Positions 15,579 through 20,661 of a stretch of DNA of 23,852 nucleotides are shown here, one piece after another. Position 1 is the first letter of the stretch. Every line of letters starts with the position of its first letter. The stretch covers positions 1 to 23,852 of the forward strand of contig NZ_PJPV01000073.1 of assembly GCF_002864045.1 (NCBI RefSeq), in the 5' to 3' direction. This DNA comes from Endozoicomonas acroporae. Its GTDB lineage: Bacteria; Pseudomonadota; Gammaproteobacteria; Pseudomonadales; Endozoicomonadaceae. The position numbers and the translations under genes were made by a program. The notes beneath the pieces were generated by a model that saw only the letters and a list, made by a program, of their open reading frames with translations, made no database searches and had not been told where the DNA came from.

Positions 15579-17219
15579 CTAAAGCAGGTAAGATGCCGAT
15601 AAAGCCACAGCCCCTACCGGTACTGCAATTTGGGCATATCTGACCAAGTGCCAGAAAGAAGATAGCCAGGTTCTCTGGTCTACTTTGGGGTTTGACCTGA
15701 ACCTGACGTCAAGGCTTTTCTTGGAAAAATAATTATCTTCATAGCGCTTGGAACTGAAGAGCCCCCACAAGGTATACCACTGGCAATCCCAGGCGTCAGG
15801 ATCGGATTCGCAGGACTGATGGTAGAAAGGCAGGTTTTTCTGATAAACCGTTAACTTCAGTGTGTAAATTGTGTTCGGAGCCAGCTGGTCGTCGTAGCTG
15901 AGGGCCTCGTTGGACAGGAAGATTTTTCCGGGGTAGTAGAACAGTGTGGGCACATAACTCCGGTAAATATTTTTGTCAGGGTTATCACCATTTTTCAGTT
16001 TGAACTCCCAAAGCGTGGACCGTCGAATTTTCTGGTCGCTGGAAATGGCGTTCAATGTTTGCTGAATACCTTTTGCTTCATCTATATAAATAGTGGACTT
16101 CAATCTGTCGCCAAATATGGAGGGTTCGTAGAGCTGGACTCTGACGATGATATTTTTCAGCTTTTCAGTGACATCTTCTGATACCTCGTTGAGTGCTGCG
16201 GCAGAGAAGTCCTGAGCCCTCATGATGAATGGGTAGCCTTTCTCTTGCCTTGAGCCATCCAGACCAGGGGCCGACTGCCATACCAGTGGGTCAATCTGCT
16301 CGTTGTCAAAAGTTTTGGGAAGCGAAAAAGCGTTGGGAGAGTCTGAAGCAATTCTTTTTCGTGTGGTTACGGTAAAGCTGACTTCGTCTTCACCCTTGAA
16401 GCGACAGGAAAGGCTATCCGGTTGCGGGTTGTGGATATGCTCGTTGAAGATGTACTCGTTTTTGGGGTCTTCAATAAACAGGGTTGGCGCTAATCTGGCA
16501 GATTGTGAGGTACGCGCGATGTTTTTCAGATTGCTGACAGTGACCACTTCCTCTTCACCCGGTAGCAGATCATAGCCATTGGCAAGACGGTCAATAAAGC
16601 CGGGGGAATCAGGGCTCCAGCGGGCTTTGTCTTTTTTCAGAAACTCAACGTCAAAGACCATTTTTCCCTCACCATCCTGACAGTAACGGCTTTCGTGCAT
16701 GGTGATATCGGCGTAACAGGTTTTTGCCTTCCAATGGCAATGTTCGACTTGTTTCATGCCACCGTCCGAGGTGGGCAGGTATGTCTTTTCACATACATGG
16801 TAAGAACCACAGTGATGTGCATCGGTGACCAGCTGGCACTCCTGCCAATTCCAGTGAAGGTATGTGCGGTAGTTAATAACACCTTTCCAGGCTGGTGACG
16901 GCTGTTGCCGCAAAATATCTGCCGCATCGTGGCGGCTGATATTTTTCAAGTCCTGCCATGCTTCTTCGTCAAAGGATTCCGGTAAGCGAACATGGGTATA
17001 GTGGTTGGCCGAACATCTTAACTCTTCAGAGTGGAGGTTGCGGGTTTGGTCGGCAGGGATAACGTGTCCGGGACATGACTGGCTTGCTGTTATCCTCGGA
17101 GCAGACACTTGCAGGCAATGGTTGTTAATAAGAAAAGGCACGGCATAAGAGGTGTATGGCTTTGAAAATAAAAGTATGAGCAGCAAAGCCACATACACAA
17201 GTTGCTTTTTGATAGCCAT
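15579..17219 (-). CDS. Orphan Cys-rich exported protein with a C-terminal hydrophobic anchor
   Basis: This is a long ORF (the track gives 553 aa from 17240). ATG 17219 gives a clean signal peptide, MAIKKQLVYVALLLILLFSKPYTSYA|VP. There are 12 Cys, 9 of them in the first about 170 mature residues. The last 16 residues, IAVPVGAVALSASYLL, are hydrophobic. I recognise no catalytic motif. Confidence 0.75.
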   Translation of the reverse strand: MAIKKQLVYVALLLILLFSKPYTSYAVPFLINNHCLQVSAPRITASQSCPGHVIPADQTRNLHSEELRCSANHYTHVRLPESFDEEAWQDLKNISRHDAADILRQQPSPAWKGVINYRTYLHWNWQECQLVTDAHHCGSYHVCEKTYLPTSDGGMKQVEHCHWKAKTCYADITMHESRYCQDGEGKMVFDVEFLKKDKARWSPDSPGFIDRLANGYDLLPGEEEVVTVSNLKNIARTSQSARLAPTLFIEDPKNEYIFNEHIHNPQPDSLSCRFKGEDEVSFTVTTRKRIASDSPNAFSLPKTFDNEQIDPLVWQSAPGLDGSRQEKGYPFIMRAQDFSAAALNEVSEDVTEKLKNIIVRVQLYEPSIFGDRLKSTIYIDEAKGIQQTLNAISSDQKIRRSTLWEFKLKNGDNPDKNIYRSYVPTLFYYPGKIFLSNEALSYDDQLAPNTIYTLKLTVYQKNLPFYHQSCESDPDAWDCQWYTLWGLFSSKRYEDNYFSKKSLDVRFRSNPKVDQRTWLSSFWHLVRYAQIAVPVGAVALSASYLL

Positions 17220-17305
17220 CACATCAACCTGCAAAAACATTTAGTGAGTTTATTGTGAAAATGAGTATCCCGTCACAGATACTCATTGCTTTGTATTGAT
17301 GTTTC

Positions 17306-17471
17306 AACCCGGATATTTCATAAACGTGCTCCCGCTCTCGCTTGTCCTTTGCCGCTCTAAGGGAATTTTGTTCAGTCGACCGTACTCCCCGGTACGGCAC
17401 TCCCTCACAAAATCCCTTAGAGCGACAAAGTCCTGCGCGAGATTCGGGGCAGTTTATGAAATATCCGGGTT
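17306..17471. mobile_element. MITE family 4 copy 1 (166 bp; 20-bp perfect terminal inverted repeats aacccggatatttcataaac)
   Basis: The termini and an internal inverted pair (gctctaaggga / tcccttagagc) are visible. It differs at only a handful of positions from 19810-19974. Confidence 0.8.
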
Positions 17472-19014
17472 AAAAGAGCTGTCGTCTTTTTCTGCGATCA
17501 GCAAAGACGTTGTCCCTGGTCAGCATATCAACCACGCTTTGCAGCTTTCTGGCTTCGTCGAGACGGTTTTCCTGGTTTTCCAGAGCGTTGATGCACATGG
17601 CAACAGCTCCTTTGAGTGTGCCAGCCTCAACCATCATGACGTCGCTCTCAATATCATCGTCATCTTCTGATGAGCTGAAAACCTGCTTTGCTTTTGCCTG
17701 GTAGAGGGCTCTTGCCATGTCTGAACTGAGGTAGTGCTGACGATATCCGTCACGAACCTTTCTCAGGCCGCCTGAGCGACTGATGGCCAGTTCTTCATCA
17801 ATATCTTTTTTAATCAGGGCGATAATGAAATATTTGGTGTCCATCTCATTGGATTTGCCGCCCAACCAGGTAACCCATGAACTGACAGATAACCACTTTT
17901 TGCTGGCGGAATTTTCAATGGTTAACATTGCTTCCTGAGCGAGATTGGCGTAACGCATGAGCTTATTCTGATCATAAATGGGTGCAGCACCAACGGTCAT
18001 ATCGTTCAGGTAGTAATCCAGATTGAAAATACGCTTGTCATATTCAACCGGGATGCACCCAATCTGAATACCATAGGTGGCACGAATGTAAGATCTTGCC
18101 CAGAATGCATCGATCAACATCTCTTTGGCTCTTTTGCTGCCTTCCCGGTCGGAAATGGTTCTGTATCTCTCTGACGTACCGAAGGTATCTATAAAGGTTT
18201 CAATGGCATCTTTGGTAAACCGGTTGATCCCTTCATCAATGACTCGCTTATCCTGGGTTCGCATGGCCCGTAGCTGCAAGGCATTACGTTTCATATCAGC
18301 GATCTGTTCTGCAGTATACAGTGACATCGACTTGAGCTGGTCGCTACTGATTCCGAGCTGCTGATGAAGGACGCCATTGGGCAAAACGATATTGAAATGA
18401 AGCTCGCTCATCCGGGTATCAAGCCTGCGCAAGGTTGACTGGTATTGATGAACCAGCGGGAGCATATCAACCTCACTGTCGGGATCCGCAGTTATGTCTG
18501 GCCTGAGGGTGGGGAAATGTTCCAGGTTGTTTACGTCTTGAAGGAACAGGTTTGATTCCTGTGTGAAGGTTCTCACATGGTCAAGAAATTCCCTGACGGG
18601 TATTGGTTGAAGGATGCTTTCGTCAGAAATTTTCTGGAGCTCTGAGGCAACGGTGGTTAAGTCTCTCAGGCTGCGGCCAAGATCGTTTATGGTTTTCAGC
18701 AGGATGTCACCATCACGCTCACCTCTCAAATAAAAGGCCTGTATATACTGTTTCTCGATTTCTGTTTTGTTGGCAAGGTTGATAGTCAATTCGTCACTTT
18801 TTTCCGGAGTGACACTGATAACCGGTGGGAATACTGCATCAGCGTCAGATCCTGGAGCCTGTTCGTAATAGTGACTGGGAGATACCTGTTGCCCATGGTA
18901 TTGCTCAAACCGGGTCGGGTCACTCCGTAAGGTACTGCTTGCCGAAACAGTGTGGAAAGACGTAAAAGCAAAAAATATTGCACAGCATATTATGCTGCCA
19001 GTAGCTCTGTTCAT
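17470..19014 (-). CDS. Orphan secreted protein
   Basis: This is a 514-aa ORF with signal peptide MNRATGSIICCAIFFAFTSFHTVSA|SS. The composition looks largely helical. It has an acidic run SSSEDDDDIESD and a basic tail RRKRRQLF. I recognise no motif. Confidence 0.75.
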   Translation of the reverse strand: MNRATGSIICCAIFFAFTSFHTVSASSTLRSDPTRFEQYHGQQVSPSHYYEQAPGSDADAVFPPVISVTPEKSDELTINLANKTEIEKQYIQAFYLRGERDGDILLKTINDLGRSLRDLTTVASELQKISDESILQPIPVREFLDHVRTFTQESNLFLQDVNNLEHFPTLRPDITADPDSEVDMLPLVHQYQSTLRRLDTRMSELHFNIVLPNGVLHQQLGISSDQLKSMSLYTAEQIADMKRNALQLRAMRTQDKRVIDEGINRFTKDAIETFIDTFGTSERYRTISDREGSKRAKEMLIDAFWARSYIRATYGIQIGCIPVEYDKRIFNLDYYLNDMTVGAAPIYDQNKLMRYANLAQEAMLTIENSASKKWLSVSSWVTWLGGKSNEMDTKYFIIALIKKDIDEELAISRSGGLRKVRDGYRQHYLSSDMARALYQAKAKQVFSSSEDDDDIESDVMMVEAGTLKGAVAMCINALENQENRLDEARKLQSVVDMLTRDNVFADRRKRRQLF

Positions 19015-19809: not shown

Positions 19810-19974
19810 AACCCGGATGTTTCATAAACGTGCTCCCGCTCTCGCTTGTCCTCTGCCACTCTAAGGGAGTTTTGTTCAGTCGACCGTACTCCCCGGTACG
19901 GCGCTCCCTCACAAAATCCCTTAGAGCGACAAAGTCCTTCGCGAGATTCGGGGCAGTTTATGAAACATCCGGGT
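19810..19974. mobile_element. MITE family 4 copy 2
   Basis: It is co-linear with 17306-17471 and lies 100 nt downstream of the 142-aa ORF. Confidence 0.8.
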
Positions 19975-20199
19975 CAAGCCATCTGCAGCTTCACGGATGA
20001 CCGGATGATGCGGCTATTGAAATTAGCATCCGTACCAGCTTTTCTGCAGGCAGTGATGCTATTGACGTTCAGTTAGTACCTTTTTACCGCTCCCTTAAGT
20101 TCATTAGTGAACTTTTTCAATTATCCAAAGTCAAAATGTGTGATCAATAATAAAAAAATTTCTTTTAATACAATAAATTTCTAATTTTGAGAGTTCAAT

Positions 20200-20661
20200 A
20201 TGAACCCTTTAACCCATATTACCGGCACTGGCAGTGCACAAATTGATATTCCTGTCACATCAGAGGGAGCAGGCGATGCAAGTGGTTCTGGCAATGAACG
20301 CCAGACTGCTACTCCCTGGTACCGAACAGACAAGGCAAAAACTGTCTGGCGGGGGTTAACCATTATCTCCGCTGGTGTAGCCCTGGGGATAGGTGGTGAG
20401 TCACTGAGTAATTACCTTTGGAAACGGGATGGGGTTATACCAACGTACTCGGACGATACTCCGCAGCCAATCATGGGGGCCATCATGGGCTTTTTAGCAG
20501 GGAGTATTATTTTCTTGCTCGATGAACGTCGCCGCACAATACAGGAAAGTTCTCTGGCAAGCAGATCAATCAGTGTGGCATCGAGTCAATCAGAGGCCTT
20601 CAATACCCGGGTTGAAATTTCTGATCATCAGCATTCCGCAGATAGGGCAAGTAGAGTCTGA
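20200..20661 (+). CDS. Small two-helix membrane protein, paralog 2 (153 aa)
   Basis: See paralog 1. The upstream 90 nt is also homologous to the region upstream of paralog 1 (tgaactt.ttcaatt..ccaaagtc...gagagttca.tATG). Confidence 0.7.
   Translation: MNPLTHITGTGSAQIDIPVTSEGAGDASGSGNERQTATPWYRTDKAKTVWRGLTIISAGVALGIGGESLSNYLWKRDGVIPTYSDDTPQPIMGAIMGFLAGSIIFLLDERRRTIQESSLASRSISVASSQSEAFNTRVEISDHQHSADRASRV

Follow-up and report, generated by a model that had tools for sequence, protein, structure and literature searches.

What occupies the space beside map, the methionine aminopeptidase gene, in Endozoicomonas acroporae, and do the genes found there belong together? The window analysed here is a stretch of 23,852 nucleotides (nt) (contig NZ_PJPV01000073.1 of assembly GCF_002864045.1) and carries at 15579-20661 a block of four open reading frames (ORFs): two co-directional genes, referred to as A and B, and two small paralogous genes divergent from them (Table 1). 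The original prediction, made from the letters of the DNA, described this block as a single orphan island, lineage-specific and concerned with the envelope or with host interaction, and as the place in the window most likely to hold something undescribed. The block is indeed the least explained stretch of the window, and the ORFs, the miniature inverted-repeat transposable element (MITE), the AT-rich spacer and the decayed sugar locus that were described are all real, but orphan status and the single island did not hold. A and B are a coherent two-gene unit, co-conserved and under purifying selection.

Conservation and products of the A-B pair

At each of the 37 loci that include sequence 5' of B (28 Endozoicomonadaceae-type and nine distant), gene A lay directly ahead of B and on its strand, and the co-occurrence of homologs as neighbours, which the original prediction had named as a check, was thereby observed throughout. 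The two genes are separated by gaps of 3-103 bp in every locus except the window, where a MITE is inserted between them. The ratio of nonsynonymous to synonymous substitution (dN/dS) relative to Endozoicomonas sp. SCSIO W0465 was 0.115 for A and 0.179 for B, with values of 0.055-0.059 for map and glnD. The pair thus combines order and adjacency kept across distant genomes, short gaps and purifying selection. A word-seeded protein search returned 26 homolog clusters for A and 35 for B, limited to Endozoicomonas, Parendozoicomonas and metagenome proteins. Homologs of A across the Endozoicomonadaceae displayed 98-37% identity, with the copy in Endozoicomonas sp. GU-1 at 98%. When 185,579 species genomes were scanned with a pattern, A turned up in 18 loci, with B next on the same strand in each, and these belonged to Endozoicomonas, Parendozoicomonas, Sansalvadorimonas, one uncultured Oceanospirillales metagenome-assembled genome (MAG) and a record titled "Salinisphaera sp. 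G21_0". This last record is probably mislabelled, since its gene content and its protein identities of 98% are those of Endozoicomonas. The pair adjoins map-glnD in most of the Endozoicomonas loci examined, whereas in E. montiporae and the outgroups it lies at other places, with flagellar genes, transporters or further genes as neighbours, which argues that the adjacency of A and B is more than inherited local synteny.

With two exceptions, every Endozoicomonadaceae genome examined has both genes intact and at full length. In E. montiporae CL-33 (L026/L027 3063-7994) an insertion sequence (IS) with a DDE transposase splits A into 3063-3668 and 7137-7994 and leaves B intact; B is split in the outgroup locus L005. 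A tandem second B, diverged and 58-60% identical to the B of the window, is present in five species (YOMI1, SESOKO1, E. atrinae, E. elysicola and Ca. E. cretensis; L009-L013).

When the B alignment was used as the profile in an exhaustive search, the family grew to 131 clusters at 50% identity, 70 of them with E < 1e-30; the clusters are mostly metagenome or MAG proteins of 480-710 amino acids (aa) without Pfam domains. Eleven distant loci (GC content 0.39-0.66) were retrieved, nine of which include sequence upstream of B, and a homolog of A (profile E 1e-22 to 1e-80) lay directly 5' of B in all nine. These distant relatives, at 20-35% identity, belong to uncultured bacteria, among them the source of a Bdellovibrio-like contig, and with them the proposal that the genes are lineage-specific falls. 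The assignment of that contig to Bdellovibrio/Pseudobdellovibrionaceae rests on a single neighbour gene, coding for a DHH phosphoesterase in a 90%-identity cluster with proteins from Bdellovibrio sp. 28-41-41 and from Pseudobdellovibrionaceae. No homolog was matched in E. coli genomes, a tblastn search of plasmids with the Bdellovibrio-type B protein gave no match, and the E. montiporae locus tag was not mentioned in any paper found.

Protein A is predicted to consist of a Sec-type signal peptide, a variable disordered linker (approximately residues 26-80), an all-alpha body and a basic C-terminus. Its N-terminus (MNR...IICCAIFFAFTSF..VSA/SS) contains, by hydropathy, a positively charged n-region, a hydrophobic h-region and a small-residue cleavage site, and for both A and B this feature is shared by the homologs. 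The core motif FWxRSY(I/L)RxxYG is conserved, and eight residues are invariant superfamily-wide (G279, R307, R311, G315, Y325, G386, D404 and G416). The AlphaFold2 model of A (predicted local distance difference test score, pLDDT, 66) is all-helical with one short beta-hairpin, and its best Foldseek matches in the PDB were generic helical bundles, with ClyA and Hbl-B at E about 0.5 and a template modelling (TM) score of about 0.1. A match of A to PADLOC PDC-S09 (E = 0.005), the best library match of any of the four proteins, was treated as noise.

The start codon of gene B is almost certainly the ATG at 17219, judging from the conservation of this start and of its GCAGG Shine-Dalgarno sequence; the upstream ATG is not conserved. 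The product is then 546 and not 553 aa long. Signal-like N-terminal segments are present in both proteins, and B has 12 cysteines and a hydrophobic C-terminal helix, in line with the Cys-rich, anchored protein originally predicted. The N-terminus of B (MAIKK..VALLLILLF..SYA/VP) displays the features of a Sec signal by hydropathy and is followed by a cysteine-rich domain of very long beta-hairpins, Ig/FN3-like beta-sandwiches and the C-terminal helix (AlphaFold2 model, pLDDT 78). A conserved YDLLPGExE stretch (LLPGExE motif) resembles the beginning of an Ig-like sandwich, weak Ig_mannosidase/FN3 similarity was seen, and a PDB profile search detected weak FN3-like similarity in the C-terminal sandwich (E = 0.056). 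The median is also 12 cysteines per family protein; 11 are invariant in the Endozoicomonadaceae alignment, and superfamily-wide three are invariant and three more nearly so. The top 11 Foldseek matches of B in the PDB were all beta-pore-forming toxins in the pore state (lysenin, anthrax protective antigen, CDTb, iota Ib and aerolysin), with E of 4e-3 to 2e-2, probability of at most 0.14 and TM of at most 0.12, and are non-significant.

The N-terminal hydrophobic segment was found in 28 of 33 Endozoicomonadaceae-type B proteins and in 77 of 95 others. A hydrophobic C-terminal helix was present in 24 of the 33 compared to 4 of the 95, and in the outgroups basic residues follow it. Instead, 91 of the 95 other family members have an amphipathic C-terminal tail with basic and aromatic residues, approximately DxRS..KFxDWQ. 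From this we infer a membrane attachment of B, direct in the Endozoicomonadaceae and elsewhere via the amphipathic helix and perhaps via D, one of two further partners encoded in the distant loci.

There, B is usually followed by C and/or D. C is a helical protein of 406-472 aa with a signal peptide, and D (365-420 aa) combines a signal peptide with a hydrophobic hairpin close to its C-terminal end. Neither has relatives in Pfam or the PDB. Comparison of A with C, A with D and C with D by hhalign gave probabilities of at most 0.5%, with no paralogy detected, and the small paralogs and the 252-aa protein encoded further along the window show no similarity to C or D. A third conserved gene in the outgroup Endozoicomonadaceae-type loci was considered and rejected, the downstream genes being unrelated to one another. 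In two of these outgroups (L004 13268-15424; L005 13183-15231) the pair is followed by large proteins, unrelated to each other, with no firm Pfam assignment and with long disordered low-complexity N-termini that look effector-like by eye. Just 3' of D in two other loci (L033 8778-9302; L038 5007-6308) there is an outer-membrane beta-barrel gene (OMP_b-brl, Omp85 domain), either a further component or a coincidence.

Searches of Pfam, NCBIfam, PADLOC and PHROG gave no match below E = 1e-3 for any of the four proteins of the block, and Pfam and other family libraries gave nothing for 25 and 20 further family members. PDB sequence searches returned no match for A or B, PDB profile searches of A, C and D nothing below E = 0.1, and Foldseek nothing at E of 1e-3 or lower for the models of A and B against the PDB or for B against viral structures. 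The four proteins contain no HExxH, P-loop or GxSxG, and no integrase or transposase is encoded in the block, as had been stated. The original prediction could place no motif in these proteins; this stands as regards characterised families, to which no confident match emerged, although the 26, 35 and 131 clusters of homologs leave A and B far from orphans. Since A-B(-C-D) showed none of the features that define known protein families, it is classed as undescribed, a term used here for a coherent module with no detectable relatives among the families searched and not for a new mechanism.

The chlamydial protein OmcB is cysteine-rich, contains beta-sandwiches, is about 550 aa long with a signal peptide and is encoded beside a partner gene. 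The A-B pair differs in that A is a large helical protein and not a small lipoprotein, and the cysteine pattern and N-terminal hairpin domain of B seem unrelated. Neither the Chlamydia OMP6 nor the DUF11 Pfam family was found in B or 25 family members.

Candidate promoters and the intercistronic hairpin

Upstream of A, the sequences of 16 Endozoicomonas loci cannot be aligned apart from a single conserved block, GGAACTATATTCTTTCACCATGGTCAAT in the window. It contains the motif GGAACT-N16-GGTCAA, in which the GGAACT and GTC bases are essentially invariant; GGAACT itself is shared by 15 of the 16, the exception being E. ascidiicola with tGAACTT. At the corresponding place upstream of A, two loci of the outgroups read GGAAC-N-TCTGA. 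The consensus for sigma-E promoters of E. coli is GGAACTT-N16-TCAAA with an extended -10 element (T/C)GGTCAAAA, a strong preference for a 16-nt spacer and A/T-rich upstream sequence (PMC1312014). With GGAACTa, a spacer of exactly 16 nt and TCAAt (tGGTCAAt), the candidate promoter of A matches this consensus in its -35 element, -10 element and spacer length. We infer from the motif that expression of A-B may depend on sigma-E (RpoE/AlgU), a sigma factor of the extracytoplasmic function (ECF) type.

A stricter motif pattern occurred only four times in the window, each time 5' of A, of the small paralogs or of the 252-aa gene and always with a 16-nt spacer. The relaxed consensus (up to two mismatches) gave 8 matches compared to 2.8 expected, a number reached by 1 of 100 shuffles. 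The genomes of GU-1 (L006), G21_0 (L008) and E. acroporae (L029) have equivalent sites 5' of the 252-aa gene and of small-paralog genes. Because the small paralogs and the 252-aa gene share the ECF-type motif with A-B, they may be co-regulated with it. The spacer between the small paralogs is 41 bp in GU-1 (L006 ~9241-9283), without the second motif, and 300-490 bp, with the motif, in the window, G21_0 and E. acroporae. Between the motif and the start of the 252-aa gene the window has a 122-bp insertion relative to GU-1 (22286-22407); the leader is thereby 228 nt long instead of about 100, and no inverted repeat was detected in the insertion.

The pair shares with the sigma-E envelope-stress regulon of Gammaproteobacteria the type of promoter motif, the extended GGTCAA -10 element, the A/T-rich upstream sequence, signal peptides and a predicted location in the envelope. 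It has no sequence or fold relationship to members of that regulon, and the family is absent from E. coli. The sigma-E regulon is known to include exported proteins of unknown function. Our literature search found no paper on sigma-E in Endozoicomonas.

Between A and B lies a conserved stem-loop followed by a U-run. RNAalifold on nine species gave an 11-bp stem in which three pairs have compensatory changes, and we read this hairpin as a putative partial terminator or attenuator.

Neighbouring genes and mobile elements

Table 1. Positions of the genes, candidate control elements and MITEs in the window.
Feature	Position	Strand	Remarks
map (methionine aminopeptidase)	14646-15440	-	directly 3' of B
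Gene B, 546 aa from ATG at 17219	15579-17219	-	mechanical ORF extends to 17240 (553 aa)
Intercistronic stem-loop with U-run, terminator- or attenuator-like (putative)	17260-17287	-	between A and B
MITE copy 1, 162 bp	17308-17469		24-nt terminal inverted repeats; at the TTTAA holding the A stop codon
Gene A, 514 aa	17470-19014	-	ORF call, homolog alignments, model, dN/dS
Candidate sigma-E (RpoE/AlgU, ECF)-type promoter of A-B, GGAACTATATTCTTTCACCATGGTCAAT	19056-19083	-	ends 41 nt before the A start codon
ECF-type motif of small paralog 1, TGAACTTATTCAATTGCCCAAAGTCCAA	19178-19205	+
Small paralog 1, 142 aa	19280-19708	+
MITE copy 2	19805-19980		spacer between small paralogs
ECF-type motif of small paralog 2, TGAACTT-N16-TCAAA	20108-20135	+	equivalent sites in L006, L008, L029
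Small paralog 2, 153 aa	20200-20661	+	two Gly-rich hydrophobic segments
GH13 (sucrose-phosphorylase-like) gene remnant	20756-22021	-	265-bp deletion
ECF-type motif of 252-aa gene, TGAACTA-N16-TCAAA	22192-22219	+	equivalent sites in L006, L008, L029
252-aa gene, clade-specific	22448-23206	+	has ECF-type promoter motif

The window DNA is collinear with Endozoicomonas sp. GU-1 at 93-98% identity and, at the protein level, with the G21_0 record. In SCSIO W0465 the order is rpsB-tsf(-), 514, 547, map, glnD, with only A and B filling the gap between rpsB-tsf and map, which agrees with the claim that the block occupies the side of map where rpsB would be looked for. The E. acroporae region used for comparison is intact and reads glnD, map, 546, 514 / 154, 154 / GH13 (571 aa), 252, NTP-transferase, HAD/S6PP-like phosphatase, 406, rpsB, tsf. 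GC content is 0.475 in the four-gene block compared to 0.49 in the window; it falls to 0.275 in the spacer 19015-19279, which is as AT-rich as described.

The small proteins of 142 and 153 aa are paralogs, as predicted (37% identity, E = 4e-21). Their description as two-helix proteins has moderate support: paralog 1 has no signal peptide, one clear hydrophobic segment and a second that is weak. The word-seeded search found four clusters of them, with one diverged copy in YOMI1, and they are confined to the clade of E. acroporae, GU-1, G21_0 and YOMI1. They do not travel with the pair as had been supposed, being missing beside A-B in W0465, E. ascidiicola, E. elysicola and every outgroup. Both the small paralogs and the 252-aa gene are later additions restricted to one clade; they lie outside the conserved module and may be co-regulated with it. 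An HExxH in the 252-aa protein is not conserved in its homologs, which read HNLTH and HDLTH, and is therefore attributed to chance.

The decay of the adjoining sugar locus is confirmed. GU-1 and E. acroporae have a GH13 gene that is intact and encodes 571 aa; by comparison the copy in the window has lost 265 bp, and the NTP-transferase and HAD-phosphatase genes beside it have been deleted from the window. The intact locus of E. acroporae and GU-1, from the small paralogs to rpsB (eroded at 20652-23852 in the window), resembles a sugar or compatible-solute pathway. No Rfam RNA family scored above threshold in 15300-23852.

The palindromic element between A and B is a MITE, as proposed, although of 162 and not 166 bp. 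Its 24-nt terminal inverted repeats are 96% complementary and it is flanked by TTTAA/TTGAA. It is a strain-specific insertion that preserves the A stop codon and is absent from GU-1 (where the empty site is seen), G21_0, W0465 and E. acroporae. The terminal repeat recurs in five other Endozoicomonas loci; the element is thus short, non-coding, bounded by inverted repeats and a target duplication, multicopy and polymorphic for insertion. It folds to -113 kcal/mol (z = -15), adding a hairpin to the intercistronic RNA, and matched no Rfam family. MITEs of the Correia/ERIC type are likewise short elements with inverted repeats, a TTTAA/TTAA target duplication, multiple copies and presence/absence variation, co-transcribed as strong hairpins, whereas the sequence family of the window element is specific to Endozoicomonas. 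A related MITE sits at the same site in ONNA2, right after the A stop codon (L021 ~1765-1950), and closer relatives are without it, which points to a hot spot or to repeated gain and loss. A second palindromic family of about 165 bp, with 56-nt terminal inverted repeats that are 84-86% complementary, has copies at 11524-11688, between corA and glnD, and at 23551-23715, in the eroded sugar locus, with a related copy in GU-1.

Two further observations concern other parts of the region. In GU-1, glnD is read as two ORFs of 574 and 330 aa (L006 14202-16915), possibly through a frameshift or an assembly error, compared to a single glnD of 903 aa in the window. At 3438-7753 the window encodes a sugar-transfer-associated ATP-grasp protein, an inactive transglutaminase-7TM fusion and a RimB-like putative zinc protease, a known cluster type that is seemingly unrelated to A-B.

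Interpretation of the pair

Our best explanation, to which we give about even credence, is that A-B encodes an envelope-stress-regulated complex of the periplasm or envelope. A and B would both be exported via Sec and act as a disulfide-stabilised envelope complex. In the Endozoicomonadaceae the C-terminal helix of B would sit at the inner membrane with the protein facing the periplasm and A as its all-helical partner; in other lineages B would have its amphipathic tail and the operon would usually add D and/or C. Read from a sigma-E (RpoE/AlgU-type ECF) promoter, the operon would belong to the extracytoplasmic-stress regulon, with the intercistronic hairpin lowering B relative to A, and its role there would be envelope maintenance or remodelling. 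On this view the Endozoicomonadaceae would have kept a smaller, self-anchored form of a wider A-B-C-D module.

Several points weigh against this explanation. Signal peptides and anchors were judged by hydropathy, and the C-terminal helix of the window B is moderately hydrophobic (Kyte-Doolittle value 1.46). The promoter motif was scored against the E. coli sigma-E consensus, other ECF sigma factors recognise similar motifs, and a search for the motif near bamA/rseP in L001 gave nothing beyond chance. Neither homology nor fold provides a biochemical handle. Finally, some features suit an interface between cells: the B duplication in five species, carriers that are host-associated and predatory, and the disordered neighbours in the outgroups.

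These last features would be accounted for if A-B, with C and D elsewhere, were a secreted membrane-active or adhesive system directed against another cell, with B as the recognition or insertion subunit. We regard this as possible but on balance unlikely. The strongest Foldseek matches of B are all beta-barrel pore states and its model has very long beta-hairpins, D carries a hydrophobic hairpin in an exported helical protein in the manner of Hbl/Nhe/Ahl, the module is present both in symbionts and in a Bdellovibrio-like contig, and B has been duplicated and has diverged. The broader likeness is to the tripartite ClyA-family toxins (Hbl/Nhe/AhlABC) together with the aerolysin/protective-antigen beta-pore-forming toxins, with which the module shares a multi-protein Sec operon, helical parts including the D hairpin and a beta-rich B. 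It departs from them in that the matches of both A and B are non-significant, no Pfam toxin family was hit, A, C and D are not detectably paralogous, and B is predicted to be tethered by an anchor or amphipathic tail and to have no free C-terminus. The stress-type promoter and the housekeeping neighbourhood (map, rpsB) would also be unusual for toxins. An alpha-pore-forming toxin was considered separately and is not supported, given that A, C and D are not paralogs. Also tentative, and about equally doubtful in our estimation, is a wider proposal: that A-B-(C)-(D) constitutes an undescribed envelope or cell-surface apparatus of four families without known relatives, common to the Endozoicomonadaceae, which live with animals, and to Bdellovibrio-like predators, and serving in contact with another cell (for example in attachment, membrane insertion or envelope remodelling during invasion); in the Endozoicomonadaceae this apparatus would have been reduced to two self-anchored proteins under stress control. 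As for the host-interaction role originally suggested, the sigma-E-type promoter motif and anchoring tail point at least equally to residence in the envelope.

The four genes might alternatively constitute one horizontally acquired, lineage-specific island, as their contiguity in the window, E. acroporae, GU-1 and G21_0, the ECF-type motif common to A-B and both paralogs, and the divergence of the paralogs from A across the AT-rich spacer would suggest. We consider this improbable. The paralogs form few clusters, are unrelated to C or D and are absent from most genomes that have A-B, which refutes an obligate four-gene module; A-B itself is ancient and extends well beyond this lineage, and the GC content of the block is close to that of the window, with no integrase or transposase. 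What survives of the module as first proposed is its core, A-B, which is co-conserved, predicted to be exported and uncharacterised. That the ORFs are decaying or non-functional remnants is most improbable of all. Erosion of the neighbouring sugar locus, the MITE within the operon and the IS-split A of E. montiporae are what such decay could look like, but A and B are full-length in all but two genomes with dN/dS of 0.12-0.18, the promoter, Shine-Dalgarno sequence and hairpin are conserved, and the MITE leaves the A stop codon intact.

Bacteria of the genus Endozoicomonas are the dominant bacterial symbionts of many corals and of other marine animals, and to our knowledge almost nothing is known of their envelope and host-contact machinery. 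Four protein families (A-D), absent from Pfam, NCBIfam and the PDB, are delimited here. Their function might also be sought through the remote Bdellovibrio-like operon, in a second kind of organism that may be easier to work with. If the promoter assignment holds, the pair would provide a first handle on the sigma-E regulon of the Endozoicomonadaceae, and its presence in every Endozoicomonadaceae genome examined makes A-B a candidate for knock-out, localisation and structure determination in this family.

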